Shown one piece after another: positions 6,125 through 63,889 of a DNA stretch of 63,889 bases. Location: IMG/VR virus record IMGVR_UViG_3300015245_000007, positions 1 to 63,889 of that record; one strand, 5' to 3'. A program made the translations under genes and the position numbers. This DNA comes from a virus. The number at the start of each line of letters is the position of its first letter. The stretch's first letter is position 1. Under the pieces are notes generated by a model. It did no database searches and had not been told where the DNA came from. It worked only from the letters and a program-made list of their open reading frames with translations.

Positions 6125-6373
6125 GGCCTGGCGCTCCTGTTCGAGGTGACGCGGGTACGCGGTGTAAGACGCCGGCCGGGTGACAAACTTGGAAGAAAGC
6201 ACCCGGCCGGACGCTGCGCATGGCCGGTGGGGACCATGCGCCGCAACCGTTCGCGGGGACTATGCGAGGGCTGCGGAGAGCCAGCGTGACGCCGAATCGC
6301 TTCGGGCGCCAGCATCAGGCAAAAGGAATGTTGAAACGTCCCCATTTTGAACGCCGCCCCACGCGGCGCGGTA

Positions 6374-6640
6374 TCAGGCAGATTTCTTCAGCTTTGCCGG
6401 CCGCTGCACACCGAGCGGCCAATTCTCGCCGGCCGGCCAGTTATCGCCGAACCAGCGCAAGGCTTCGTCGTACTTTTCGACATTGAAGCCGCCTGTCTTG
6501 ATGCGATCGAAGAACTTCCAATCGCCCGTGGCTTTCTCGCCGATCGTCGCCGTGCTCTTGCCCGTGGCGGAGCAATAAGCACTCGAGAGCGCGACAAGAT
6601 GGCTGCGGAGAATTTCGGTCTGTGACGTCGGTTTACCCAT
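6374..6640 (-). CDS. hypothetical small protein, first gene of leftward early operon
   Basis: ATG 6640, 88 aa, non-repetitive composition; divergent from XRE gene. Confidence 0.55.
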   Translation of the reverse strand: MGKPTSQTEILRSHLVALSSAYCSATGKSTATIGEKATGDWKFFDRIKTGGFNVEKYDEALRWFGDNWPAGENWPLGVQRPAKLKKSA

Positions 6641-6686
6641 GGGGCGGGACGTTAGCCGATTTAATTCGGTGCGGTCAAGATTAGGG

Positions 6687-6715
6687 TTGCCCTACCGAAA
6701 ATTCTCGGCATAATG
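6687..6715 (+). promoter_or_regulatory. sigma70-like promoter of rightward early operon
   Basis: TTGCCC (6687-6692), 16-17 bp spacer, CATAAT/ATAATG (6709-6715); followed by hairpin GGTTGC-gtggg-GCAACC (6722-6738) and SD GAGAGGGA. Confidence 0.5.
6695..6708. promoter_or_regulatory. candidate operator, imperfect palindrome CCGAAAATTCTCGG inside the promoter spacer
   Basis: CCGA-N6-TCGG, 12/14 self-complementary; same half-sites recur at 56339, 56541, 58859, 62639. Confidence 0.5.
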
Positions 6716-6754
6716 CGCCCTGGTTGCGTGGGGCAACCTGAGAGGGACATTCAC

Positions 6755-7165
6755 ATGCAACGCGAAAAGGCGCGCGGCGCCACCATTGATCGGGCCTATT
6801 TGGTCCAGATCGGAAACCGGCTCAGAGCATCGCGCATGCAGAGAGGCATTTCCCAAAGTGCGCTCGGCAAGCTACTCGACGTCACCTTTCAGCAAGTGCA
6901 AAAATACGAGAAGGGCACCAATCAAATGCCGATCTCGTCAATCCGCCAAGCAGCGAGCGGTCTTGATACCACCGTTTCCTATCTGCTCGGCCTCGATGCC
7001 GAGCAGGCCGCGGCGAGCAAGCGTCAACTCGCAATCGAGCGTATCGATAGCGTTCCGCACGGCCAGGCTGCCCTCGATACACTTTGGAAGTTGACCATAG
7101 TGCCCGATCACGGCCGCGAGTTCGCGCGTCTTTGCCGGATCATCGCGGCTTTCATCCAAGAGTAA
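6755..7165 (+). CDS. XRE-family HTH transcriptional regulator (repressor candidate)
   Basis: ISQSALGKLLDVTFQQVQKYEKGTNQMPISS is a classic HTH_3 pattern; ATG 6755 behind SD GAGAGGGA. Confidence 0.75.
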   Translation: MQREKARGATIDRAYLVQIGNRLRASRMQRGISQSALGKLLDVTFQQVQKYEKGTNQMPISSIRQAASGLDTTVSYLLGLDAEQAAASKRQLAIERIDSVPHGQAALDTLWKLTIVPDHGREFARLCRIIAAFIQE

Positions 7166-7194
7166 TCCACCCGAACATTAAGGGAGACCGATAT

Positions 7195-7548
7195 ATGACT
7201 AACGCGAATGGAAACGACGCGCCGCTCGGCGCGCGCACCGGCCAACAGCAGGAAGAGCAGAAGCGCAACGAACTGACCAATGTCGACGCGATCACCAATC
7301 ATGCCAGCGGCGTATTGGAAAACGTCGCGGTGGCGACCGTCCAGCAGATCGATTCACTTATCGGCAGGCTGCAGGCGATGCGCCTCGAGCTGCTCACCGA
7401 TGTCGCCCGGGTTCGCGCCACCATCCGGGGCCACTTGACGCTCGCCGATCAATTCGGCGCGTCGGTGAATATCATCGGCGAGAGCATCGATAAGCTGCGC
7501 GCCGACAATGCGCGCCTGGTCGACAACGCCAAACATGAGGAAGCATAA
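7195..7548 (+). CDS. hypothetical protein (helical)
   Basis: ATG 7195 with AGGGAG SD at 7181-7186. Confidence 0.6.
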   Translation: MTNANGNDAPLGARTGQQQEEQKRNELTNVDAITNHASGVLENVAVATVQQIDSLIGRLQAMRLELLTDVARVRATIRGHLTLADQFGASVNIIGESIDKLRADNARLVDNAKHEEA

Positions 7549-7551
7549 GCC

Positions 7552-8898
7552 ATGATGGGCGATTTTGACGACGTCCCGCAGCAGGCCGCGCCGCCGCCTG
7601 CAGGATCATCGCGCGGTGGCGAGGTGTTGCCGCCACTGCCGGAAAACCTGCCCGCCGTCATCACAACCGACGTCGTGTTGGCCGAACGGCCGGTCATCAC
7701 CGCGCAGCTCGTCTATCAACCCGGCGGACCGGAGGCGATCATTGCCCGCCTCGAGGCCGAGGTGCGCGCCTTCAAGGGCGACATTTCAACGGAGAAGGGG
7801 CGCGGAGAAATCAAGTCGCTCGCGCACAAGGTCTCGCGCACCAAATCGCTGCTCGACGAAATGGGCAAAGAGCTGACGGAGGGATGGAAGAAAGCCGCGA
7901 AGGTGGTCGACGTCGACCGCAAGAAAATCCGCGATCGCCTCGATGCGCTGCGCGATGAAGCGCGCAAGCCGGTCGACGATTGGGAAGAGTACGAGGAAAA
8001 ACGGATTCAGGGTCACCGCGATGCGCTCACGGTCCTCGAGGATCTCGGAGTCTTCACGTTCGGCGACGATGCCGAGCCGACAGCCAAGATGGTTCACGAT
8101 CGCATCGCAGTGATTGAGGAATTGCCGGCGCGCGACTGGCAAGAGTTTTCAACTCAGGTCGCCGATCGCAGGGCCGCTCTGCTCTTGAACCTTGGCGGCA
8201 TGCTCAAGCGCGCCCAGAAACGCGAGTCAGACGCTGCGGAGCTCGCGGAGCTGCGCCGCCAACAGGCGCAGCGTGCGGCCGATGAAGAGGCAGCGCGCGC
8301 CGCAGCCGAAGCCGCGCGGATCGCGGAAGAGCAGCGCCTGGCCGCCGAACAGGAAGCGGAGCGCGTGCGCCTCGCCGAAGAGCAGCGCCAGCGCGAAGAA
8401 GCCGAGCGCATTCGCGTTGCGGCCGAAGAGGCGCGGATCGCTGCAGAGCAAGCCGCCGCCGCGGAGGCCGAGCGCGTGCGGCTCGCCAATGAGACCGCCG
8501 CCCGCGAAGCGGCGGAACGCGCCGAGGCCGCGCAGGCCGAACGCGATCGCGTGGTCGAGGCGGAACGTCAGCGCCTCGAGCGCGAGCGCGTCGCGGCCGT
8601 CGAAGCGCAGCAAGCCGCGATCGCGAAAGCCGAAGAGAATCGCATCGCCGGCGAGAAGGCCGCGGCGGCGGCGGCGCAAAAAGCGATCGACGACGAACGC
8701 GCGCGCGTTGCCGCTGACCAAGTGCGCGAGAACCAGGCTGCGCTCGATCGCGAGAAGAACAAGCAGCACAACGCGAAAATCAACGGCGAGGTTCTCGCCG
8801 CGCTCCAGCAGCACGCGGGCCTGACGAAAGACGGCGCGAAGGCCGTCGTCGTCGCGATCGCGCAAGGCAAGATCGCTCACACCAAAATCAGTTATTGA
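7552..8898 (+). CDS. coiled-coil protein (DUF1351-like N-terminal half, TolA-like E/A/R-rich repeats)
   Basis: 448 aa; sits directly upstream of exonuclease/RecT as DUF1351 proteins do; EAERVRLAEEQRQREEAERIR.. repeats. Confidence 0.5.
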   Translation: MMGDFDDVPQQAAPPPAGSSRGGEVLPPLPENLPAVITTDVVLAERPVITAQLVYQPGGPEAIIARLEAEVRAFKGDISTEKGRGEIKSLAHKVSRTKSLLDEMGKELTEGWKKAAKVVDVDRKKIRDRLDALRDEARKPVDDWEEYEEKRIQGHRDALTVLEDLGVFTFGDDAEPTAKMVHDRIAVIEELPARDWQEFSTQVADRRAALLLNLGGMLKRAQKRESDAAELAELRRQQAQRAADEEAARAAAEAARIAEEQRLAAEQEAERVRLAEEQRQREEAERIRVAAEEARIAAEQAAAAEAERVRLANETAAREAAERAEAAQAERDRVVEAERQRLERERVAAVEAQQAAIAKAEENRIAGEKAAAAAAQKAIDDERARVAADQVRENQAALDREKNKQHNAKINGEVLAALQQHAGLTKDGAKAVVVAIAQGKIAHTKISY

Positions 8899-8899
8899 A

Positions 8900-9097
8900 A
8901 TGATGAAATGGACCTGGCGCGCCGCCGACGCGATCGCCACCGCAACGCCCGGCAGCGTCGCCATTGAAACCGGCAAGGCGACAATCCTCATGACGCCCGA
9001 CGCCGCGGAGGCGGTCGGCGCGATGATGATTGCCGCCGCCTACGTCTCCCGCTCGATGCAGACCACCGTTCCAGAGGAAAAGAAATCCGATGCCTGA
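8900..9097 (+). CDS. hypothetical small protein
   Basis: ATG 2 nt after upstream stop; 65 aa; 8-nt overlap with exonuclease start. Confidence 0.45.
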   Translation: MMKWTWRAADAIATATPGSVAIETGKATILMTPDAAEAVGAMMIAAAYVSRSMQTTVPEEKKSDA

Positions 9098-10040
9098 CCC
9101 AACACGCGAGTCAATCTCCGCGACCGAAACGCCGGCGCTCTTTAACGCCTCGCCCTATCTCACGAAGCGCATGCTGTACGAGCGCATTGCGAACGGAGTC
9201 GATATCGACTCCCCGGAAAACAACCGCATGGATTGGGGCAAGCGCATGCAGGGCGTCTTGCTGCAGGCAGCGGCCGAGGATCACAAGCTCGACGTCCTGC
9301 CGAACATCGGATCGGACGGAAAGGAAGTCTATATCCGCCGCGGCCGCATCGGCTGCACGCGCGATGCCGTGATCATCGATCCGCAGCGCGGGCCTGGCGC
9401 GCTGGAAATCAAGATGTGCAACGACTATCGCGTATGGCGCGAGAGTTGGGGCTCGGGCGCCACTCCGCCGCGCCACAACGAAGTGCAGCTTCAGCAGCAA
9501 ATCATGGTCGGCGATGGCGTGACGCCATTCACCTGGGGACTGCTCGGCTGTTGGATCGCCGGCGAAATGAAATACTGGAAGCGCGAGCCGATGCCACGCC
9601 TTTGGGCGCAGATCGAAAAAGAGACGACGCAGTTTTATGAGGACGTCGCCGCCAAGAAGGCGCCCGATTGGATCGGCGACCCGGTGGAAATGCCGCTGCT
9701 CACCGAGCTGTTCCCGCCGCGCTTCGCGAAGGTGACGGACTTCACAACGCGCGATGACGCCGAGAAGCTCGCCGAAAAGTGCCTGATGCTCAACTATCAC
9801 AGCAAAGAGCGGCTCGGGCACGCGAAGGCCGAAGATAAATTGAAGGCGGAGTTGCGCGCGCTCCTGCTCGATGCCGAAGAAGGCCGCTTCATTCACGGGA
9901 TCAAGTTCACCGTCAAGCAGTCCGACCGCAAGGGCTATATGGTCCCCGCCGGCAAGACGACGCGCACCGATCTGTATGTGCCGGACGACGTGCCGCGCGG
10001 CAATATCGCTAAAGACTTCACCGCAGACCTTGGAGGCTGA
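9090..10040 (+). CDS. YqaJ/lambda-Exo-like recombination exonuclease (PD-(D/E)xK)
   Basis: ETPALFNASPY..MDWGKRMQ..ALEIKMC pattern; immediately upstream of RecT. Confidence 0.65.
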   Translation: MPDPTRESISATETPALFNASPYLTKRMLYERIANGVDIDSPENNRMDWGKRMQGVLLQAAAEDHKLDVLPNIGSDGKEVYIRRGRIGCTRDAVIIDPQRGPGALEIKMCNDYRVWRESWGSGATPPRHNEVQLQQQIMVGDGVTPFTWGLLGCWIAGEMKYWKREPMPRLWAQIEKETTQFYEDVAAKKAPDWIGDPVEMPLLTELFPPRFAKVTDFTTRDDAEKLAEKCLMLNYHSKERLGHAKAEDKLKAELRALLLDAEEGRFIHGIKFTVKQSDRKGYMVPAGKTTRTDLYVPDDVPRGNIAKDFTADLGG

Positions 10041-10044
10041 TGCC

Positions 10045-11238
10045 GTGGGATCGGAACTCGAAGTTTTGGAAAATCAACTTGCCATCATGCGTCCGCAGTT
10101 CGAGGACGTGCTCGCCGGCATGATGCCGCCCGAACGCCTCATCCGCACGGTGATGGTGTGCGCCGAGAAAACGCCACAGCTTCTGACGTGCACGCGCCAG
10201 AGCCTTTTCAACTCGAGCATGTCGGCCGCGATTCTCGGGCTCGAGTGCGATGGCGTCACCGGCCAGGCCTTCTTGCTGCCATTCAAGAATACAAAAAAAG
10301 GCTGCGTCGATGCGCAACTGCTCATCGGATACAAAGGCTACAATACGCTCGGTGCGCGCGCCGGCCTCACGATCACGGGCCAGGTCATCCGCGAGGGAGA
10401 CGAGATCGACTATCGCCAGGGCACCGGCGCGTTCGTTCATCACAAAATCAAGCTCGGCAACAAGGGCAAGATCATCGGCGCATGGGCGCAGGCCGAGTCG
10501 CGCGATCGCCCGCCGATCGTCGAGCTGCTCGGCATTGATGAAATCGAAGCGATCCGCAAGAAGTCGAAAGCCAGCGCGGCCGGGTTCTCGCCTTGGGACG
10601 ACGTCGCAATCGGATTCCCGGCGATGGCAGGCAAGAGCGCAAAGCGCCGCTTGCCGCGCTCGATGCCGCTCACCGCCGATACGAACCGCTATCACATGGC
10701 CGCGCGCATGGATGAGGCGCACGACGAGCAAGGGCGCTCGTCCTATATCAAGCCGGAGGAAACAGGCCCGCGCCTGGTTCTCGATTCTCCGTTCGCGCCG
10801 ACCGAAGATGTCAACCCGCCGGCCGACGAAGATCTGACCAGGCGACGCGACACGCTCAAAGAGAAGGGCGACGCCGTCGCGAAAGAGGGCATGGCCGCGT
10901 TGCAAGAATGGTGGCAGGGCTCGAGCATCACCGAAGCCGACCGCACGCGCTTTCGCGGCGATCAGCTCAACACCTGGAAGACGACGGCGGCGAGTCTCGA
11001 CTTTCACCGCAGGCAGGCCGCCGAGGATCAAGCCGCGCTCCAGCGTGCCAACAGACCGACCAGCGAATCCGAATACGAGGCCTATTTCAAAGCCTGGCTT
11101 GCGGACATCGCCGGGCCGACGCAAGCGCGCGCGCGCTGGTCTAGCGATGACGAGAAGGGCTTGCGCGATCGCTGCAACGTCTCGGCCGACAAGCGCGAAG
11201 AGCTGTTCGGCGTGATCTCTCAAACCTTCGGAGGCTGA
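10045..11238 (+). CDS. recT: RecT-family single-strand annealing protein
   Basis: GLECDGVTGQAFLLPF, LIGYKGYNTLGARAG, SPWDD motifs; GTG 10045 with GGAGG SD 8 nt upstream. Confidence 0.75.
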   Translation: MGSELEVLENQLAIMRPQFEDVLAGMMPPERLIRTVMVCAEKTPQLLTCTRQSLFNSSMSAAILGLECDGVTGQAFLLPFKNTKKGCVDAQLLIGYKGYNTLGARAGLTITGQVIREGDEIDYRQGTGAFVHHKIKLGNKGKIIGAWAQAESRDRPPIVELLGIDEIEAIRKKSKASAAGFSPWDDVAIGFPAMAGKSAKRRLPRSMPLTADTNRYHMAARMDEAHDEQGRSSYIKPEETGPRLVLDSPFAPTEDVNPPADEDLTRRRDTLKEKGDAVAKEGMAALQEWWQGSSITEADRTRFRGDQLNTWKTTAASLDFHRRQAAEDQAALQRANRPTSESEYEAYFKAWLADIAGPTQARARWSSDDEKGLRDRCNVSADKREELFGVISQTFGG

Positions 11239-11239
11239 C

Positions 11240-11542
11240 ATGGCGCGACGTCGCAACGATATGGGCATCAACAAACCGCGCTGGCCCAAGAGCGGCGAAT
11301 GCCGTGTCTGTCATTGCACAGACGAGTTCGGCTGCGATGCCGGATGCTCTTGGGTCGATCGAGCGCACACGCTTTGCAGCCTATGCACCGGCACAACGGC
11401 CGATCTGCACTACACGCTTTGGGCCATCGGCTACGCTTCGCGGCACTATCCGCAGGAAGCGGCCTTCAAATGGATCGTGCGCGAAGCGCGAGCGGCACGG
11501 CGGCGCCACGACGGATATATGAAAGCCATAGGCATCGCATGA
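11240..11542 (+). CDS. Cys-rich small protein (CRVCHCTDEFGCDAGCSW..LCSLC)
   Basis: ATG 11240 directly after recT stop; 9 Cys in the first 50 aa. Confidence 0.6.
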   Translation: MARRRNDMGINKPRWPKSGECRVCHCTDEFGCDAGCSWVDRAHTLCSLCTGTTADLHYTLWAIGYASRHYPQEAAFKWIVREARAARRRHDGYMKAIGIA

Positions 11543-12153
11543 CCGCGACCGCGTACCCTCTTGCTTGGCCGGCCGGGTGGCCGCGAACACCGCCAGCGGA
11601 ACGCTCGGCCGGCCAGGCCTTTTCGCAAGGCGCCGGCACTGATCGCCGCGCAATCACACTCGACATCGCGCGCAAAAAGCTATTCGACGAATTGGAAATG
11701 CTCGGCGCAACCGACGTCGTACTGTCCGCGAACATCCCCTTGCGTGCCGACGGCTTGCCGCGCTCCGGCGCGACCTGGGGACGCGAGCCAGGCATCGCGC
11801 TCTATTTCACGATGAACGGCCAGCAGCTCGCCATGGCGCGCGATGCCTACGATAATCCGGCCGCTAACGTGCGCTCGCTCGGCATCGCGATCGCCGGGAT
11901 GCGCGCGCTCGAGCGCCACGGCGGCGCGGCGATGGTGCAGCGCGCGTTCTCCGGTTTCTCGGCGCTGCCGCGCCCGAAGTCGTGTTGGGAAATTCTCGGC
12001 ATCCCGCCGCGCTCCGATGCAACGGCGATCCGCAGTGCATGGGTCAAGCTCGCCGCGCGGCATCAGGCCGACGGCGGACCTGGCGGCATGCTGGGGGTCG
12101 TGAACGCAGCGCGCGACAATGCGATACACGAAATCCAAGTTCTGGGTGACTGA
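11539..12153 (+). CDS. hypothetical protein with C-terminal J-domain-like segment lacking HPD
   Basis: ATGA coupling; CWEILGIPPRSDATAIRSAWVKLAARHQAD resembles J-domain helices I-II but reads HQAD, not HPD. Confidence 0.45.
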   Translation: MTATAYPLAWPAGWPRTPPAERSAGQAFSQGAGTDRRAITLDIARKKLFDELEMLGATDVVLSANIPLRADGLPRSGATWGREPGIALYFTMNGQQLAMARDAYDNPAANVRSLGIAIAGMRALERHGGAAMVQRAFSGFSALPRPKSCWEILGIPPRSDATAIRSAWVKLAARHQADGGPGGMLGVVNAARDNAIHEIQVLGD

Positions 12154-12416
12154 TGCGCCGCCGCCGCTTACTCCCGAAGCCGCCAGAGAAGCCGGGCTAT
12201 GTCTGGCTCGCCGGCGCTTGGGTCAAGGCGGAAGACGTGCACGCCTTCGCGCAGAAAACGATTTCTGATTTCGACACCGCGCCGGCGATGATGCGCGCGG
12301 CGCGTCGATCGACCGCCGACGAAGATATCGAACCCTCGATGGAAGCCATTCGCGAGGCCGCCGAACGCGACCGCGCAGAATACGCCGGACCCAAGCCAAA
12401 GCGACGCCGGCGATAA
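12153..12416 (+). CDS. hypothetical protein
   Basis: TGATG coupling; 87 aa, basic termini. Confidence 0.5.
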   Translation: MRRRRLLPKPPEKPGYVWLAGAWVKAEDVHAFAQKTISDFDTAPAMMRAARRSTADEDIEPSMEAIREAAERDRAEYAGPKPKRRRR

Positions 12417-12440
12417 CGACAGGAACAACGGAGTCGACGC

Positions 12441-14354
12441 ATGAACGATACCACCATCAGCTCTGATCATCTCGCGCCCATCACCACGACGCATGCAAAA
12501 CTCGCCGGCGGCAATATGGTGCTCTCAGTCCCGCTCACCGACCTGGTGCTAGGTCACGAGCTAAACCCGAGCATCAATGCGCGGATCGGAGATCCCAACG
12601 AAGGCGTGCCGGAGCTTGCAGCGCTCATCAAGGCGAACAACTGCAAGCTTATTCAAATGCCAATCGCCAAGCCGCTGCCGCGCAACCGCGGTACGATGGC
12701 AACGCAGCAATATGGCGTCTTTGCCGGCAACCGGCGCGCCGGCGCGCTGCGGCTGCTCGCCAACGAGGGCGCGATCGCGAAAGACGAAATGATCGACATC
12801 GTCGTGCGCGATGTCACCGACGCCGAAGCGCTCGAGATTTCACTCGCCGAGAATGTCCATCGCCTGCCGCCGCATCCGGTCGACCAGTTCGAGACCTTCG
12901 TGCGCCTCATCGCAGAGGGCATGAACGTTGAAGAGATCGGCACGCGCTGGTGCATGAAGGAAAAGATGGTTCGCCAGCGCCTGGCGCTCGGCAATCTCTC
13001 GCCCGTGCTCCGCAAATTGCTGCGCGACGACAAGATGAACCTTGGCCAGGCGCAGGCCTTCACGATCGAGCCGGATCACGCGGCGCAAGAGCGCATTTTT
13101 AAATTGTTGAAGGGAAAGTTCGGCGGTCACTTCGGCGAGGGCCAGATCAAATACGAGCTGACCAAGGGCGGCAATCAATCCGCCGCGCTGCTCGAGTTCG
13201 TTGGCCGCGATGGATACATCGCCGCCGGCGGCACCGTGAAGGCCGATCTCTTCGCCGAGGCGCAATATCCCGACGACATTTCGCTTTTGAACAAGCTCGC
13301 CGATGGTCGGATCGAATCCAAGCGCGCCGAGCTGCTCGAGAACGGCTGGTCGTTCGTCGCCGACGAGATGAACAACGAGCCGGGCATCAGCCCGCATTTC
13401 ATAACGCAGATCAAGGTGCGCCCGGTTTACACGCCGCAGCAGGTCGGAACGCTCTCCGAGCTCGAAAAGAAAATGAAGCCGCTCAATTACCACGACGAGC
13501 GCGCGATCAAGCTGCGTACACAGGTCGAGGACATCAAGACGGCCGGCACGCTCGCGGCCTATACCGAAAAGCACAAAAGCGAATCCGGCTGCTGGCTTTC
13601 TTTCAATCGCCATGTCGGCCGCCTGGATATTGTCTATGGCGTGAAGGATCCACGCAAAGAGCCGAAGGCGTCGAAGAGCGCGCGCGCCGGCGCGGGCAGC
13701 TCGCTCTCAAGCGCAAAGCCCAAAGACCCCAATGCGATCAGCCAGAATCTCGAGAAGCAACTCGCCGTGCAGTTCACGGCGGCGATTGCGAAGGTGGTCG
13801 AGGGCGATTCGCAACTCGCACTCTGCGCGCTCATCGCCGGTTTTATGGCCGGCGGCTTTAGCGGCGATCCAGTGCGCGTGCATCACGACGGCCGCGGCAG
13901 CTTCGCCAATCGCGACGACGGCGCCGCCAAGAAGGATTTCAAGTTTTACTTCGCGATGGCGCAGAAAAAGAAACCTGCGGAACGTCTCGCGATCCTGGCG
14001 AAGATCGCCGGCGGCGCGCTCTACCTCGATTGCGCCGACCGGCCTGAATACGACGACGGCGCCACCGAGGCGTTGATCAGGGCTTGCGACGTGAAGCACG
14101 CGCGCGAGGCGATCGCCAGTTCGATCGATTGGAAAATGTATTTCGCCGGCATCAACAAGGCGCAGGCGCTCGAGGCAATCGAGGTTGCGCTTGGCGCCGG
14201 CGAAAAGCAGCGCCTTGCCAACAAATCGAAGCTTGAGGTCGAGGCCGCCGCGATCGCCAAGGTTCCGGCGACCAAATGGCTCCCGCGGGAGTTCCGGACG
14301 GTTCACTATGACGGCCCGGTGGAAAAGGCCAAAAAAGCCGGTTCCAAGAAATAG
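12441..14354 (+). CDS. large ParB/Srx-domain protein (ICE/plasmid-type ParB-like)
   Basis: GNRRAGALRLL, ALEISLAENVHR, HTH EEIGTRWCMKEKMVRQRLAL; 637 aa; no parA partner seen. Confidence 0.7.
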   Translation: MNDTTISSDHLAPITTTHAKLAGGNMVLSVPLTDLVLGHELNPSINARIGDPNEGVPELAALIKANNCKLIQMPIAKPLPRNRGTMATQQYGVFAGNRRAGALRLLANEGAIAKDEMIDIVVRDVTDAEALEISLAENVHRLPPHPVDQFETFVRLIAEGMNVEEIGTRWCMKEKMVRQRLALGNLSPVLRKLLRDDKMNLGQAQAFTIEPDHAAQERIFKLLKGKFGGHFGEGQIKYELTKGGNQSAALLEFVGRDGYIAAGGTVKADLFAEAQYPDDISLLNKLADGRIESKRAELLENGWSFVADEMNNEPGISPHFITQIKVRPVYTPQQVGTLSELEKKMKPLNYHDERAIKLRTQVEDIKTAGTLAAYTEKHKSESGCWLSFNRHVGRLDIVYGVKDPRKEPKASKSARAGAGSSLSSAKPKDPNAISQNLEKQLAVQFTAAIAKVVEGDSQLALCALIAGFMAGGFSGDPVRVHHDGRGSFANRDDGAAKKDFKFYFAMAQKKKPAERLAILAKIAGGALYLDCADRPEYDDGATEALIRACDVKHAREAIASSIDWKMYFAGINKAQALEAIEVALGAGEKQRLANKSKLEVEAAAIAKVPATKWLPREFRTVHYDGPVEKAKKAGSKK

Positions 14355-41234: not shown

Positions 41235-42875
41235 TCACGCTAGACGCCCGTCGAGATTTCCCGCCGCGATCGCCGCCGCCTTCTTTGCCATTTCGGCCTG
41301 TTGCTCGCGCATGAAGTCGAGGTACCCGCGGCCCTTGAAGTTCGGGTTCGCATAGGCCAGCACCAGCGCATCCCAATCGTCGGGCGACGGGATTTTATCG
41401 GCGATCATGTCCTCTTTGGACTGCATGAGAATCAGGCCGCGGCTTGTCGTCTCGTATTTGATAACCGCCGCCTGGCCTGCGGTCTCTTCGTCCTTAAGGT
41501 CGATCTCGCCGGCTACGAACATATCGCGCACGGCCCAATTGATTTCGGCTTTTAGGTTCTTGAAGCGCTGTTTTTCCTTGGCGCCAAAGCACGGCGCGCC
41601 GACATTGACCGGGACCACGACGAACGACGGCAGGCGTTCGGGATCATCCGGCCTCTTGAGCTTATCCTCGCGCTGCATCTCGAGCAGGCGGTCCGTCACG
41701 CCGCCGCCGAGGCCTGCGTCATCGATCTTGACCCGCGTTGCCCCGGTCGCCCGCACCGCGATGACGATCCGGCCGACGACGTGCATCAGGTCGCGCTTGC
41801 GGAATTTGTCTATCTTGCGCGCGACGGCGCCGCGCCTGTGGAAAATCACCGTCGCGTTGCCGTTCTCCGATCGCGCGACGTCAACGCCGAGCTCGTTCGG
41901 ATCGGTCGGCGGCAGCTCTTGCGCGAGCGCGGCCGTGATGAAGCGCAGCGGCACCAGGCCGCCCTCTGCCTGGTCGGGAAATTCGCCCTTGACCTTCGAT
42001 GACCAGAACGGGTGATCTTCGCCCCAATCTTTGCGCTTCTCTTCGACCCAGGTGCGCGACACCAGCAGCGGGCTAAGCCAATCGGGGACCGCCTCGCCAG
42101 TGAAGTTCGGACTTTCGAAAGCATTGATGGCGATGTGATTCCAGCCAGAGCCAGGCAGCGAGACGTGGCGGAATTGGGTATCGGGATCATCCGGATTGCC
42201 GATCGCCAGGATGCGCGCGTCATCGTTCGCGATCAGCGTGTCGGCCGCATTCCATATTGTCTTGTCGACGCCACAGGCCTCATCGAGCAGCACCAGCACA
42301 TAGCGCGCGTGGATGCCCTGAAACGCCGTCGCATCCTTTGGGGCCCGGCCGAAGCCGACCAGCTCGTTGCCGAAGAACCATTCAATCTGGTTGACCTTGC
42401 CCGGAAGGTGGGCGGCCTTGTGAATGCGGTTGATCTCGCGCCAGAGCAGCGCGCGGACCTGGGCATAGGTCGGCGCCGTCGAGACGACGAAAGCCTCACC
42501 AGGCTTGTGACTCGAGAGCCACCACGCCGCGATGCCGGCGGCCACATACGTCTTGCCGACATCGTGGCAGGATGTGACGACGGTGCGGCGGTTATCGCGG
42601 ACGGAAAGACAAATCTGTTTCTGCTTGGACCACAGAACCCCGCCGCAACCCTTCTCGATGAACCCGACGGGATCGGCGGCATAGATGCCGAAGCGGTTGG
42701 CCTCGACGTCTTGCTCAATGCGTTGTCGCGCCTCCATCAGCTCGCGCAGGCGCTTGAGCTTCGCCACCACTTCCGGCGTCGCCGGCAGGCTGTTGACCAG
42801 CTTCTGCCACTGACCGCTCGAGCTGTCGGATGGCTCTGTCAAGATCCTCGACTGTTGGGGTGAGGAATCGGTCAT
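41235..42875 (-). CDS. terL: terminase large subunit
   Basis: Walker A-like SCHDVGKTYVAAG, LVLLDEA Walker B, nuclease half; start uncertain (ATG 42875 overlaps terS by 161 nt; ATG 42737 alternative). Confidence 0.75.
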   Translation of the reverse strand: MTDSSPQQSRILTEPSDSSSGQWQKLVNSLPATPEVVAKLKRLRELMEARQRIEQDVEANRFGIYAADPVGFIEKGCGGVLWSKQKQICLSVRDNRRTVVTSCHDVGKTYVAAGIAAWWLSSHKPGEAFVVSTAPTYAQVRALLWREINRIHKAAHLPGKVNQIEWFFGNELVGFGRAPKDATAFQGIHARYVLVLLDEACGVDKTIWNAADTLIANDDARILAIGNPDDPDTQFRHVSLPGSGWNHIAINAFESPNFTGEAVPDWLSPLLVSRTWVEEKRKDWGEDHPFWSSKVKGEFPDQAEGGLVPLRFITAALAQELPPTDPNELGVDVARSENGNATVIFHRRGAVARKIDKFRKRDLMHVVGRIVIAVRATGATRVKIDDAGLGGGVTDRLLEMQREDKLKRPDDPERLPSFVVVPVNVGAPCFGAKEKQRFKNLKAEINWAVRDMFVAGEIDLKDEETAGQAAVIKYETTSRGLILMQSKEDMIADKIPSPDDWDALVLAYANPNFKGRGYLDFMREQQAEMAKKAAAIAAGNLDGRLA

Positions 42876-43149
42876 GCTGTCCCAGGTAGTGTTTCGACAT
42901 ATGGATGACCATCGTCACCCCGGCGCTATTGGCGAGCTGCGCGTGGCGCCACTGTAAGCGCTTGAGGCTTTGCTTGGCGAAGTTCTCGCCGTTGGTCCAA
43001 GCCTGTTCAAACTCCGGCTCGCTCGCAATGCGGCGCGTGATCGTATGACGCGACACGCCGAAGAACGCCGCGATTTCCTCTTGCGTGCAAAACATGTTGC
43101 ACAGCTTTTCGAAGTTCTCGAGGTTGAGCTCTATTTTGGCCTTCGCCAT
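42715..43149 (-). CDS. terS: terminase small subunit (HTH type)
   Basis: CTQEEIAAFFGVSRHTITRRI HTH; directly upstream of terL; GGAGA SD. Confidence 0.6.
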   Translation of the reverse strand: MAKAKIELNLENFEKLCNMFCTQEEIAAFFGVSRHTITRRIASEPEFEQAWTNGENFAKQSLKRLQWRHAQLANSAGVTMVIHMSKHYLGQHDRFLTPTVEDLDRAIRQLERSVAEAGQQPAGDAGSGGEAQAPARADGGATTH

Positions 43150-43203
43150 CTAATCAGTCTCCGCCAGCATCGGCGCCAGCTTAGGCACAGGTTTCCTTTT
43201 TTG

Positions 43204-43232
43204 TCGACAAGGGTCGGCGGTTCACCTAAAAT
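43204..43232 (+). promoter_or_regulatory. strong sigma70-like promoter of the rightward radical-SAM operon
   Basis: TCGACA (43204-43209), 17-bp spacer, TAAAAT (43227-43232); divergent from terS. Confidence 0.55.
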
Positions 43233-43256
43233 CATCGGCGAACCATGGAGCCAATC

Positions 43257-46748: not shown

Positions 46749-47135
46749 ATGTCCGACGAAACAGCGCGCCCCACGGCCACCAAAACCAGGCAATTCCCCG
46801 TCGACGTTTTGACGCCAGGCGCCAAGCGCCGGCGCCTCGAGCTCACGATGGCGCCGGTACCGGCCTATGCGGAGCTCGCCGCCAAGGTCGCGCCGCTCAT
46901 TGGCGGCTCAATCGAGCACGTGCGCATATGGGACAAGCACCAGGAAATTTACGCCTCGATGTTCGTCGACGAGCAATCGATTTCCAAGGGTCTGCCGCGC
47001 AACGAGGCCGCGACCAAGATTTACCGCGCGAACATGATCGCGCACTCGAAAGACCCCCGCGCCAAGCTCGACCCCGAGCGCCTGCCCGCCATCTATGGCG
47101 CAGCCGTCGTTTTCAAATGCAATGTCTGGCGTTGA
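46749..47135 (+). CDS. hypothetical protein
   Basis: ATG 46749 with GGAG upstream; 128 aa. Confidence 0.5.
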   Translation: MSDETARPTATKTRQFPVDVLTPGAKRRRLELTMAPVPAYAELAAKVAPLIGGSIEHVRIWDKHQEIYASMFVDEQSISKGLPRNEAATKIYRANMIAHSKDPRAKLDPERLPAIYGAAVVFKCNVWR

Positions 47136-47184
47136 CGTTTCCGCAATCGCCGAATATCTTCGGTACATCACAGAGAGGTGCACC

Positions 47185-47580
47185 ATGGGACGCAGGCCGA
47201 GCCTGACAGACGAACAGAAAGATCTGATCGCGGAATTGCGCGAGGGCCGCGGGTGGTCCTACGCGCGGATCGCCATCAAGCTCAAGATCGCCGAAGGTTC
47301 GGTCTCTTGGTATTGCTTGAAGCAAGGCATCGAGAAGCCAGGCCGCAAAATTCCGGTCCTGCGGCAACCGCAAACAAAGCCCTTCACCCGGCACGGCCGA
47401 ACGGTGCGGCCATTCTCGCCGGAAGAGGACGCGAAGATGCTCGAGCTCTCCGCCGAGGGTCTCAAGCCAGCGGCGATCGCGCGCGCGCTCGGCAATCGCC
47501 GACCGAACAGCATCACCGGCCGGCTCTACACGCTGGCGCGACACCAGGACCGCGCGGATGCATCCCAGGGAATAGGATGA
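47185..47580 (+). CDS. DNA-binding protein: Hin-like HTH + GcrA-like segment
   Basis: GWSYARIAIKLKIAEGSV HTH; FSPEEDAKMLELSAEGLKPAAIARALGNRRPNSITGRLYTL resembles the GcrA N-domain; AGAGAGG SD. Confidence 0.5.
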   Translation: MGRRPSLTDEQKDLIAELREGRGWSYARIAIKLKIAEGSVSWYCLKQGIEKPGRKIPVLRQPQTKPFTRHGRTVRPFSPEEDAKMLELSAEGLKPAAIARALGNRRPNSITGRLYTLARHQDRADASQGIG

Positions 47581-54755: not shown

Positions 54756-54858
54756 GGCGATCGCCTCCGGTTGAGGCGCGCAGCGTATCCGCACCGAAAT
54801 TATTCGGCAAGTGTGGAATAGATCAATTCGGCCATGGCGAGCGCGACGAAGGCCGCGA

Positions 54859-55907: not shown

Positions 55908-56311
55908 GGCAGCTTGTCCATTGCTGTGAGGGTTGAGAGCGCGCGGTGCAGCGCGGGCGGGTCGTTCAAGATCGTGGCGATATCGCCGAACTGGTTGAAC
56001 AGGGGCACGCGCTGGCCAAGCACGTTGGTGCACCACAGCTCCGCCATGCCGTGAAAGTCTCGCATGATGATTCCTGATCGCGCGCCTGGTGCCGGCTTCT
56101 CTGGCTCTGCCGGCTTCACCTCGCGCCAGGTCGTGTTCGTCGCACCAGCACTCGAGAACGAGCCAGGCGCGCCTGCGCTCCGCGCGCCCATGGCTTGACG
56201 CAATACGGATTCGTGCGTCGCCGTCGCCACTTGCTCGAGCGCAGCCTTGAGCCGCGCCTCGAGCTGTGCGCGGGTCTTTGCGTCGGAGGCATCCCAATTC
56301 ATTTGCGCCAT
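55904..56311 (-). CDS. hypothetical protein, first gene of the leftward 56311-50295 operon
   Basis: ATG 56311; 135 aa; palindromic promoter element 24 nt upstream. Confidence 0.5.
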   Translation of the reverse strand: MAQMNWDASDAKTRAQLEARLKAALEQVATATHESVLRQAMGARSAGAPGSFSSAGATNTTWREVKPAEPEKPAPGARSGIIMRDFHGMAELWCTNVLGQRVPLFNQFGDIATILNDPPALHRALSTLTAMDKLP

Positions 56312-56334
56312 CGTTGCAGCATGCCATTGCCGAT

Positions 56335-56358
56335 TATTTTCGGCAATGCTAATCTGCG
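56335..56358. promoter_or_regulatory. perfect palindrome CATTGCCGA-ttattt-TCGGCAATG (operator/bidirectional promoter candidate)
   Basis: 9-bp arms; contains GCCGA-N6-TCGGC; TTGCCG -35-like hexamers readable on both strands. Confidence 0.55.
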
Positions 56359-56533: not shown

Positions 56534-56580
56534 TTGCATCGCCGATAATATTCGGTCACCCTGCGCCGGTCGGGTGAAAC
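56534..56580 (+). promoter_or_regulatory. promoter-like element with GCCGA-N6-TCGGT operator and downstream hairpin
   Basis: CACCTCTTGCAT (the same CACCTCTTGC precedes the 317 element), GCCGATAATATTCGGT 56541-56556, hairpin TCACCC-N10-GGGTGA 56556-56577. Confidence 0.45.
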
Positions 56581-56830: not shown

Positions 56831-57127
56831 ATGATCAGCGATAGCGCCAGCCGTCTCGGCCTCTTGCCCTATGAGCGCGTCGTGCTCGAGGTGTTCTGCA
56901 TCAACGAGCCTCTATGCCGCCGCGAGGTGCACCAGCTCGCCGGCTACTCCGAGGGGACATGCAGTCGTGCCATGGCGAAGCTTCGGCGAATCGGGTTGCT
57001 CGAGCGAACGCAGTTCGGGCGGTTCAACTGTCCATGGACGGCGACCGATCGCGGCAAGATCGCGTTCGCCCTCATCGCCGGTCGCGAATTGATACGGCGC
57101 AATGCGCGCCGCAGACAGCCCGCATAA
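56831..57127 (+). CDS. MarR-like winged-helix DNA-binding protein
   Basis: LLPYERVVLEV..REVHQLAGYSEGTCSRAMAKLRRIGLLER; GAGGGA SD. Confidence 0.55.
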   Translation: MISDSASRLGLLPYERVVLEVFCINEPLCRREVHQLAGYSEGTCSRAMAKLRRIGLLERTQFGRFNCPWTATDRGKIAFALIAGRELIRRNARRRQPA

Positions 57128-57482: not shown

Positions 57483-57543
57483 CCGGGAACGATCGCAAAA
57501 ATCGTTCCCGGCAATCGTTCCCGGTTCCCGAAATCGTTCCCGG
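57483..57543. repeat. iteron cluster 2 (CCGGGAACGAT family)
   Basis: Forward copy 57483-57493 and inverted copy 57501-57511 form a palindrome around CGCAAAA; more inverted copies at 57514-57524 and 57533-57543, partial TTCCCG 57525-57530. Confidence 0.8.
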
Positions 57544-58068: not shown

Positions 58069-58165
58069 TTGCGAAAACGAACCTATTGCAATCTTTTCAA
58101 TATTCAGGCACAAACAGATCACGGACGGCGCTGGCCGGTTCCGGACCCAAAGGGGAAAGCCTCAG
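58069..58165 (+). promoter_or_regulatory. conserved promoter/5' leader element, copy A (upstream of radC-like gene)
   Basis: TTGCGA..TTGCAA hairpin, then GGACGGCGCTGGCCGGTTCC hairpin (58123-58142), AAAGGGGAAAG SD, ATG 58166; near-identical core in copies B and C. Confidence 0.6.
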
Positions 58166-58850: not shown

Positions 58851-58928
58851 TTGCGTTCGCCGATAAAACTCGGCACACTATCCACCTGGGACGGCATAGG
58901 CCGGCCCCCACTCCGAAGGGAAAAGACC
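58851..58928 (+). promoter_or_regulatory. conserved promoter/5' leader element, copy B
   Basis: TTGCGT, GCCGA-taaaac-TCGGC (58859-58874), GGGACGGCATAGGCCGGCCCCC (58888-58909), CACTCCGAAGGGAAAAG SD, ATG 58929. Confidence 0.6.
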
Positions 58929-59465
58929 ATGACGACGACAGCCCCCGAAATGAACGCCGCACACAAAGCCTGGGCGACGCGCCGCGCCCGCGCCGCGGCC
59001 GCCGCGCTGATGACCAGCGTTGCAGCGATGCCGGCACCAGCGCCGGTCGAGGCCAAGCCCGCCGGCGTGCACAACGTCCACACCTCCGCGGATCTGGTCG
59101 GCATCGGCGCCGTTGCGCCCGTGATCTTTCGCGGCACGCAAGCTGTGACTGACTGCCAGCTCGTCGAGATCAGCGTCGACGATTCGGCCGTCGGCTCCGG
59201 CCGCCGCCTCTTCGTCGTGCTCGAGGAAGGCGATAAAATGGTTCGGCTGTTCTCGCCGGCAAAGCTCGTCACGATCACGGTCGACCGAAAGTATTTCGAC
59301 AAATACGGCTACTGGCCGGCGCGCGGCGTGAAGCGCTCGCGCGTCGCCGAGATCATCCGCCGCAACATCGCGCTCGCCGACAAGATCAACGCGGCCAAGC
59401 TCGAGGACGCGGTATCCGACGGCGGCGCGGACGCGGTCGCCGCGCTCCAGCTCCTGGAAGGGTGA
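58929..59465 (+). CDS. hypothetical protein with N-terminal AHKAWATRRARAAAA motif
   Basis: ATG 58929 behind leader B; 178 aa. Confidence 0.6.
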   Translation: MTTTAPEMNAAHKAWATRRARAAAAALMTSVAAMPAPAPVEAKPAGVHNVHTSADLVGIGAVAPVIFRGTQAVTDCQLVEISVDDSAVGSGRRLFVVLEEGDKMVRLFSPAKLVTITVDRKYFDKYGYWPARGVKRSRVAEIIRRNIALADKINAAKLEDAVSDGGADAVAALQLLEG

Positions 59466-62630: not shown

Positions 62631-62709
62631 TTGCGGTCGCCGAGTTTATTCGGCAATCTCTTTTCACAGGGACGGCGCTGGCCGGTCCCCACTCCAGAGG
62701 GAAGCCCGA
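62631..62709 (+). promoter_or_regulatory. conserved promoter/5' leader element, copy C
   Basis: TTGCGG, GCCGA-gtttat-TCGGC (62639-62654), GGGACGGCGCTGGCCGGTCCCC (62669-62690), CACTCCAGAGGGAAG SD, ATG 62710. Confidence 0.6.
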
Positions 62710-63030: not shown

Positions 63031-63889
63031 ATGAACACGACCACCACCACCCGCCCCCGCTCCGTCCGCGCCAGCGGCACGACTTTGACGCAGGCCAACG
63101 CGCAGTGGGAAAGCCGCCCGGCCGATCAGCGTTTCGGCTCGCTCGCCGCCATGCTGGCGGTTGCCGACCACGACAAGACGACGGCGACCGTCGCCGAGAT
63201 CAAGGCCAACGCGCTGCGCGCCATCGCACGCGGTCCCGACATCGCGATCGAAGGCGAGGGCATTATGGGCGGCGCGCTCACGAATTGGAGCTTTGGCCAG
63301 CTCGCGCATATCGCCAAAGCGCCGGCCGCCTATCTGCGCACGCTGTCGCCGAAGCTCGCGGCGGCTGCCATCAACGAAGGCCTCGACAAGCACGCCGACG
63401 CCTACACGCAAGAGGATGGCGAGGGCCGCCAGCTTCTGTTTTCCGGCAAGGGCAAAGACCTGACCGCGCGCGCCATCACCTCGCAGAAATACGGCCGCGT
63501 CTGGAATGTGGACTTGATCCGCGAGCTGATGAAGCTCGAGGCCTCGGGCCCGTGGCAGCCCGCGCCGGAGGCCTTCGACGGCTCGCGCGGCTTGTACCTC
63601 GGCGATCGCGACATGTTCGCTTTCATGGTCGATAACGAGCGCCGCATATTCGAGACCGACAAGGGCGGCGGCCTCGGCCGCGGATTCTTCCTGACGAACA
63701 ACGAAGTCGGCGGCGGCGCCTTCAACATTCTGTCATTCCTCTACGAGTATGTTTGCGGCAATCACCGAGTCTGGGGCGCGCAGCAAATCGAAGAGACGCG
63801 CGTGATCCACATCGGCGGCGGCCGTCACGAGAAGGTGCTCGAGACGCTCGGCCGCGAGCTGGTACGCTACGCCGGCGCCAGCGCGAAGG
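63031..63889 (+). CDS. DUF932-family (phage/plasmid-like) protein, N-terminal segment; continues at 1..306
   Basis: ATG 63031 behind CACACACACC-AGGAACCA; ..WSFGQLA..YGRVWN..GLYLGDRDMFAFMV..GFFLTNNEVGGGAF.. typical of DUF932; no stop before the window end. Confidence 0.75.
   Translation, partial: MNTTTTTRPRSVRASGTTLTQANAQWESRPADQRFGSLAAMLAVADHDKTTATVAEIKANALRAIARGPDIAIEGEGIMGGALTNWSFGQLAHIAKAPAAYLRTLSPKLAAAAINEGLDKHADAYTQEDGEGRQLLFSGKGKDLTARAITSQKYGRVWNVDLIRELMKLEASGPWQPAPEAFDGSRGLYLGDRDMFAFMVDNERRIFETDKGGGLGRGFFLTNNEVGGGAFNILSFLYEYVCGNHRVWGAQQIEETRVIHIGGGRHEKVLETLGRELVRYAGASAK

Follow-up and report, generated by a model that had tools for sequence, protein, structure and literature searches.

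A palindrome shared by nine dispersed promoters of an alphaproteobacterial siphovirus genome and its likely role as the operator of a CI/Cro-type switch

The switch region

Two genes lie back to back at 6374-7165 of the window (the whole stretch of DNA analysed here, 63,889 bp, which is the entire single-contig record IMGVR_UViG_3300015245_000007). The rightward gene (6755..7165, plus strand) encodes a 136-aa XRE/HTH_3 protein, hereafter XRE, which stands in the position of CI and has no S24 peptidase domain. The leftward gene (6374..6640, minus strand) encodes an 88-aa protein assigned to phrog_7669; it stands in the Cro position and is the first gene of the leftward operon. The two genes are divergent and 114 bp apart. 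A preliminary description of this DNA had recognized the gap between the ATG codons at 6640 and 6755 (6641-6754) as a divergent switch; its boundaries were confirmed and the reading as a switch is supported. The same description passed over what the comparisons below suggest is the key gene, the 88-aa gene at 6374-6640.

Each direction has a predicted promoter of its own. The leftward promoter (6649..6678, minus strand) consists of a -35 box TTGACC (6673-6678), an 18-nt spacer and a -10 box TAACGT (6649-6654), and its spacer carries the putative operator CCGATTTAATTCGG (6656..6669), a palindrome of the form CCGA-N6-TCGG. Because only 8 nt separate the -10 box from the ATG at 6640, and no ribosome-binding site precedes that ATG, the mRNA would be leaderless or near-leaderless. 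The rightward (XRE) promoter, TTGCCC-N16-CATAAT (6687..6714, plus strand; TTGCCC 6687-6692, CATAAT 6709-6714), carries the putative operator CCGAAAATTCTCGG (6695..6708) in its spacer; this promoter had been noticed before and is present, with a spacer of 16 nt. The predicted mRNA of XRE has at its 5' end a hairpin GGTTGC-N4-GCAACC (6723..6738, plus strand), the stability of which did not differ from that of shuffled sequence. Its 3' arm is one half of an 8-bp inverted repeat, GGTTGCCC (6685-6692) and GGGCAACC (6731-6738), previously described as bracketing the promoter. The repeat is present; its long-range reading was rejected, as the two halves are better read as the -35 box and the 3' arm of the local leader hairpin. 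One more exact copy of the palindrome, CCGAATCGCTTCGG, has a G/C-richer spacer; it lies at 6292-6305, between the 88-aa gene and the gene that follows in the leftward operon, and may act as a weak site or fold into a small hairpin.

Genome organization

The genome in the window is that of a siphovirus, complete and assembled as a circle. It is classed in IMG/VR under direct terminal repeats and rated 100 % complete by CheckV. Since the ends of the window share an exact 22-bp overlap (1-22 and 63868-63889), the assembly is a circle of 63,867 bp, and joining the ends restores the frame of a DUF932 gene that runs off the right end and continues in frame at position 1. Our own codon-bias gene call gave about 97 genes and roughly 10.5 % intergenic DNA. 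Terminase, portal, tape measure and tail proteins (PHROG matches) are encoded on the minus strand from about 43.1 to 15 kb, and the portal is 44 % identical to those of the Brevundimonas siphoviruses Strzyga and Polewnik. In these two structural relatives the early modules are unrelated to those of the window and the palindrome is absent.

A DNA similarity search against known phages returned nothing for the switch region, no relatives of the helicase were found in IMG/VR, and Rfam (gathering and E-value thresholds) and tRNA scans were likewise empty. When integrase and resolvase genes were looked for in this complete genome, there was no match to PF00589 or PF00239, so that lysogeny, and a true CI role for XRE along with it, is conjectural.

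Copy number and placement of the palindrome

Exact CCGA-N6-TCGG occurs 13 times in the whole genome against 3.26 copies expected, and none of 100 shuffles reached 13. Eight of the 13 copies have at least five A/T among the six spacer positions (6656, 6695, 47150, 54794, 56330, 56542, 58860 and 62640), and the motif is often extended to GCCGA-N6-TCGGC. For such A/T-spacer copies, a first-order Markov model gives an analytic expectation of 0.16 for the genome as a whole (Poisson P about 1e-11) and of 0.018 for its intergenic part. All eight fall in the intergenic tenth of the genome (P about 1.5e-8). The copies with G/C-rich spacers, four of five of which lie within genes, look like background where they are inside genes. 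A ninth site, with one mismatch, is found at 43225 on the strongest promoter-like site of its region. In an unbiased palindrome count (all 4- and 5-mers, spacers of 2-10 nt), CCGA-N6-TCGG ranked first of all palindromes tested by intergenic copies (9 intergenic, 4 coding).

The preliminary description had claimed five occurrences, all on dispersed promoters, and would have been refuted had the motif proved equally frequent in coding regions. The motif is far commoner outside genes, and an operator-like palindrome common to dispersed promoters is supported. The five occurrences are real and were an undercount of the eight A/T-centred intergenic copies and the one-mismatch ninth, a second copy (6656) having been missed within the switch region itself. 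The sites GCCGA-N6-TCGG(C/T) at 56541-56556, 58859-58874 and 62639-62654 are present where they had been reported. The perfect 9+9 palindrome reported at 56339-56354 is also real, and its site needs a shift of 10 nt, to 56329-56344.

We also considered whether the motif, in place of a protein operator, might be a small hairpin of RNA or DNA or a target of methylation or of a restriction-modification system. At least three DNA methyltransferase-like proteins are encoded by the phage, and one site (62639-62654) came up as a hairpin in a terminator scan. An enzyme target, however, needs neither an A/T-rich spacer nor a promoter-only location; stems of 4-5 bp are too weak, and the majority of the sites precede the predicted starts of transcription. 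This explanation is exceedingly unlikely. Leader hairpins 3' of the operator sites were not more stable than shuffled sequence.

Overlap with promoter cores

Every one of the nine sites overlaps a predicted sigma-70-like promoter core, in one of three registers. In the first register (6695(+), 6656(-), 56542(+), 58860(+) and 62640(+)), TTGnnn is followed by 2-3 nt, the 14-mer and the -10 box. Apart from the two switch sites, it comprises CCGATAATATTCGG (56542..56555), which begins 2 nt past TTGCAT, has a weak -10 box and lies upstream of a doubtful winged-helix ORF; CCGATAAAACTCGG (58860..58873), within TTGCGT-N17-CACACT; and CCGAGTTTATTCGG (62640..62653), within TTGCGG-N17-CAATCT. The last two promoters are each followed by the leader motif GGACGGCnnnGGCCGG and then by the genes at 58929 and 62710, respectively.

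In the second register (47150(+), 54794(-) and 43225(+)), the A/T-rich centre of the site doubles as the -10 hexamer. The centre of CCGAATATCTTCGG (47150..47163), TATCTT, is the -10 box of TTGACG-17-TATCTT (47132-47160), upstream of a gene for a two-HTH protein at 47185. On the minus strand the centre of CCGAAATTATTCGG (54794..54807), AATAAT, is the -10 box of TTGATC-16-AATAAT (54826-54799), which heads a leftward operon from 54755 to 50295. The one-mismatch site CCTAAAATCATCGG (43225..43238) has as its centre the -10 box of TCGACA-17-TAAAAT (43204-43232), at the head of a plus-strand operon from 43257. The third register is that of 56330, where the half-sites provide TTGCCG -35 boxes on both strands. 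Here CCGATTATTTTCGG (56330..56343) lies within the 9+9 palindrome CATTGCCGA/TCGGCAATG (56325-56348), and the promoters are TTGCCG-17-CATGCT leftward, for the putatively leaderless gene at 56311, and TTGCCG-17-TAATCT rightward.

The earlier view that the palindrome sits in promoter spacers beside TTGC-type -35 boxes holds for some sites and fails for those of the second and third registers. Since the register varies, we read the palindrome as an independent protein-binding site laid over promoters and not as a fixed promoter element. Several of the -10 hexamers are weak by E. coli rules, which was counted against the operator-promoter model.

The sites at 56330 and 56542 lie upstream of a 98-aa MarR-like ORF (56831..57127, plus strand), which had been named as one of two candidate regulators and for which these sites could be autoregulatory operators. 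Its similarity to winged-helix families (HTH_Crp_2, TrmB and ArsR, E 0.001-0.01) is weak. All of its Pfam/NCBIfam winged-helix hits (HVO_A0261_N, HTH_Crp_2, TrmB and ArsR) are sub-threshold, its coding score of 5.1 is the lowest of all called genes, it has no homologue in phages or in the PDB, and it is missing from the other motif-bearing lineage described below. It is therefore not supported as a binder: that this ORF reads the site is very improbable, and that it is the regulator, acting on its own operators, is if anything more so.

Transcription units

The nine operator-bearing promoters head the replication operon (6640 to 2323), the XRE-recombination operon (6755 to 14354) and seven further units in the right arm, which consist of small accessory genes; the last unit crosses the junction via DUF932 to 2102. 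The leftward replication operon begins with the 88-aa gene, followed by genes for a RuvC-like protein, a methyltransferase and a DnaB/AAA_25 helicase. Apart from radC, no non-late transcription unit lacks such a promoter. The promoter of radC (58069 onward) aligns with those at 58860 and 62640, of which it is a paralogue; it has the same leader and a decayed operator. The leader motif occurs in three exact copies (58123-58138, 58889-58904 and 62670-62685), each about 40 nt before the start codon (of radC, 58929 and 62710, respectively), and the small 5' hairpin of GGACGGCnnnGGCCGG was no more stable than shuffled sequence. The minus-strand starts at 6640 and 56311 both lie 6-8 nt past a predicted -10 box without a ribosome-binding site, which suggests leaderless mRNAs for both genes.

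On the late side, a 144-aa ORF (42715-43149, minus strand) with an HTH (NMFCTQEEIAAFFGVSRHTITRRI) is small-terminase-like and overlaps the long-ORF start of the large terminase; it is probably the small terminase and the first gene of the late operon. A palindrome TTGTCGACAA (43201-43210) offers TCGACA -35 boxes in both directions. A candidate for a middle or late regulator is encoded directly 3' of the operator at 47150 (47185-47580, plus strand): a protein of 131 aa with two motifs of HTH/Myb type (HTH_23, HTH_32, Myb and phrog_323, 'transcriptional regulator').

Separately, an 11-mer, ATCGTTCCCGG, forms two clusters (2237-2322 and 57483-57543) of four copies each, of which three are direct and one is inverted. 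Of the clusters, one adjoins the end of the helicase gene and the other lies in a 1-kb gene-poor stretch; in total there are 10 hits against 2.3 expected.

The 88-aa protein and its relatives

The 88-aa protein matches phrog_7669 (E=1.2e-19, residues 10-87), a family listed as 'unknown function' for which there is no Pfam model; searches of Pfam and NCBIfam gave no match. When 1.84 billion representatives were searched with a profile, 1745 clusters matched at E<=0.001. The AF2 model of the protein is a four- to five-helix bundle (pLDDT 80), and its Foldseek matches are almost all XRE-type HTH proteins, at non-significant values (E>2). When residues of its putative HTH were assigned to bases, two alternative helix registers both fitted.

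Gene order is conserved in this family. A homologue is the first gene divergent from an annotated or evident CI repressor in all seven annotated alphaproteobacterial phages (Rivra, RS1, RR1-A, phiAX1, ThpS-P1, AmM-1 and RHph_N3_2), and it faces a CI-like gene in 74 of 80 IMG/VR viral loci. By synteny, then, the 88-aa gene is assigned as the Cro-position gene of a widespread switch type. The relatives carry two or three palindromes of their own in the divergent gap, with 4-N4/6/8-4 geometry and typically A/T-rich centres: CGTA-N6-TACG in RR1-A, CGGT-N6-ACCG in RHph_N3_2, CGGG-N6-CCCG in phiAX1, and GGTA-N4-TACC, GGGA-N4-TCCC and others elsewhere. The RR1-A site lies in the spacer after TTGACA, placed as in the window. 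Across the relatives operator and module co-vary, and the half-sites group with the protein sequences.

Among bacterial genomes the closest homologues of the 88-aa protein are those of Hansschlegelia (50 % identity) and Chelatococcus (42-44 %). Their layout is TTGACG, 3 nt and TCGGA-N4-TCCGA, again with the placement seen in the window. The palindrome TCGGA-N4-TCCGA shares a 16-bp frame with GCCGA-N6-TCGGC, and three of the five outer positions are identical.

The collection was also scanned for two A/T-centred CCGA-N6-TCGG sites 15-45 bp apart. Among the 53 viral stretches recovered, most of them tandem repeats, there was one true relative, IMGVR_UViG_3300048892_000042. Two of its sites abut a homologue of the 88-aa gene (42 % identity), which is the only significant protein match between this genome and the window, and a third site lies 0.9 kb off, in the next divergent gap. 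The XRE-like gene across the sites has a different, unrelated recognition helix. In a 93 %-identical variant of this genome both sites and the promoter block are unaltered. In a more distant lineage (L140; 3091-3230 of JGI Ga0668521_003178, compared with L134 5736-5800) both switch sites have lost one half-site each (CCTACTCAAATCGG and CCGATTGATTTCTA; CCTA..TCGG and CCGA..TCTA) and the third, CCGAAAATTTTCGG, is intact. Metagenome and genome scans for closer relatives of the 88-aa protein gave only the 93 %-identical variant, plus 70 prophage loci with other operators.

We consider it likely, on these grounds, that CCGA-N6(A/T-rich)-TCGG is the operator of a CI/Cro-type switch that was copied onto dispersed early promoters.

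The XRE protein

XRE matches Pfam HTH_3 (33.9 bits; cut-off 23). The nearest solved sequences are the 434 repressor and P22 C2, and it aligns with the 434 DNA-binding domain. Its AF2 model gave Foldseek TM values of 0.8-0.9 to C.AhdI and to the P22 c2 and 434 N-terminal domains, and C.BclI was also matched. The C-terminus of the model forms a three-helix part with a possible role in oligomerisation. In its 4-6-4 geometry CCGA-N6-TCGG agrees with the 434 operator, ACAA-N6-TTGT.

It may be asked whether XRE, as a 434-type repressor under its own control, is the sole binder of all the sites, with the 88-aa protein binding elsewhere or not binding DNA at all. The clear HTH_3 domain with 434/P22-like sequence and fold, the geometry of the 434 operators and the site in the promoter of XRE itself all favour this. 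However, no close homologue of XRE was found among 5.8 billion proteins, the matches being at most 56 % identical and confined to the HTH, and no XRE homologue stood beside the Cro-like genes in any of the roughly 150 loci examined. The XRE of the other CCGA-N6-TCGG lineage, moreover, has a different recognition helix. The recognition helix of the window protein, TFQQVQKYEKGTN, is identical in all ten aligned members of a subfamily that are otherwise only 30-37 % identical to XRE, and these members share no upstream palindrome. That XRE acts alone is thus unlikely. In 80 viral loci with relatives of XRE, the motif was near the XRE gene in none. XRE, the other candidate of the preliminary description, remains plausible as a regulator, and nothing ties it specifically to CCGA.

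We presume that the subfamily with helix TFQQVQKYEKGTN may be the alphaproteobacterial PraR/PhrR group. The PraR site in alphaproteobacteria is CAAC-N5-GTTG (PMC5527310), of which the window has 23 matches with one mismatch allowed against 18.5 expected, none of them on operator-bearing promoters. One could also imagine a phage without lysogeny apparatus in which the 88-aa protein alone runs a genome-wide early shut-off via the nine operators and XRE, with the helix of a wide alphaproteobacterial subfamily, is a copy of a host regulator that the phage carries and that targets promoters of the host and not phage DNA; we hold this to be quite improbable.

A host transcription factor that recognises CCGA-N6-TCGG and ties the early promoters to a host signal is a further conceivable reader, given that the motif occurs in two unrelated phages of similar G+C content. 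Against it, the motif travels with the 88-aa gene, the differing palindromes of the relatives at the same position follow the phage module and not a common host, and the PraR site, the sole alphaproteobacterial XRE site checked, is not enriched. Such a factor is very unlikely.

Predicted reader of the operator

Shared operator class was predicted equally well by N-terminal identity of the CI proteins (AUC 0.80) and by identity of the Cro-like proteins (AUC 0.81), and the two are correlated (r=0.70). This is the pattern expected of co-inherited modules in which both proteins read the operators; as the two values are nearly equal, the family comparison does not separate a CI reader from a Cro reader. 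We therefore take as default the model of the family, in which both proteins would bind. For the phage of the window, the 88-aa protein is probably the best-supported predicted binder and XRE the second. The 88-aa protein reads the site with somewhat better than even probability; for XRE the chances are about even, and it may share the site with the 88-aa protein, as CI and Cro of lambda do.

Comparison with known systems

Among known systems the lambdoid CI/Cro switches are the closest, and of these phage 434. Shared with them are the divergent repressor and cro-position genes, with palindromic operators overlapping both promoters. Shared with 434 in particular are operators that lie over back-to-back promoters and are palindromes of 14 bp, with half-sites of 4 bp on either side of an uncontacted, A/T-rich centre of 6 bp. 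The lambdoid switch has three operators, whereas that of the window has two. Unlike in lambdoid phages, the CI-position protein of the window has only 136 aa and lacks the S24 cleavage domain of an inducible repressor, the genome has no integrase, and the Cro-position protein belongs to a different family (phrog_7669) from lambdoid Cro. The window also has seven further single operators on dispersed promoters, in place of one OL cluster.

The CI/phrog_7669 modules of alphaproteobacterial temperate phages (Rhizobium RR1-A and RHph_N3_2, Agrobacterium Rivra, Acetobacter phiAX1, Aurantimonas AmM-1 and Rhodovulum RS1) have a Cro-position protein of the same family (30-43 % identity), the same placement of palindromes in promoter spacers and operator frames of 12-16 bp, as in the window. 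Their CI proteins are of 205-290 aa, against 136 aa for XRE, and their half-sites are CGTA, CGGT, CGGG and GGGA, against CCGA. In RR1-A and RHph_N3_2, the two phages checked, the operators are confined to two clusters, one on either side of the repressor gene, in the manner of OL and OR of lambda, whereas in the window single operators are spread across a 21-kb arm of short transcription units. To our knowledge, none of the operators of these phages has been tested experimentally.

Dispersed operator sets, in which a single repressor specificity has many sites across the genome and silences many early transcription units, are also formed by the operators of P1 C1 and by the conserved inverted repeats of Streptomyces phage phiC31. 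The P1 operators are asymmetric and the sites of the window palindromic. In the cluster A mycobacteriophages L5 and Bxb1, dispersed stoperators with one repressor specificity silence many early units (PMC9283540, PMC6550527). Stoperators are asymmetric, a monomer reads them, and they also stop elongation within operons, whereas the sites of the window are palindromic and lie on promoter cores; asymmetric, transcription-oriented sites within operons and off promoters were not found among them.

Proposed mechanism

We infer that the sites are bound and that binding represses. The switch at 6374-7165 would comprise XRE in the CI position and the phrog_7669 protein in the Cro position, with back-to-back promoters and one operator in each spacer, and seven more sigma-70-like promoters would carry single operators on the -35 box, the spacer or the -10 box. 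On entry, host RNA polymerase would fire the nine promoters. The Cro-position protein, made from a leaderless or near-leaderless mRNA, would accumulate and, perhaps together with XRE, occupy the operators. A dimer on the site would keep RNA polymerase off the promoter, so that the early and accessory operons would be shut off together; P-radC would escape control. If the phage can persist without integration, XRE could hold the same promoters off in a carrier state. The lack of an integrase or resolvase and of a cleavage domain in XRE weighs against this last role.

Conclusions

The feature is real and strongly non-random, and it is a familiar kind of phage gene control; the assignment of the regulator has likely been corrected here. 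The control principle is textbook knowledge, and the gain lies in annotation and parts and not in concept. For this 64-kb alphaproteobacterial phage a working transcription map is now available, with nine early promoters predicted to be operator-controlled, one unregulated radC promoter and a separate late operon. The family phrog_7669, which spans about 1,700 sequence clusters from phages and prophages of alphaproteobacteria, gains a proposed function as a Cro-like operator-binding repressor, and its natural pairs of protein variant and palindrome would be a ready-made set for studying changes in HTH specificity.
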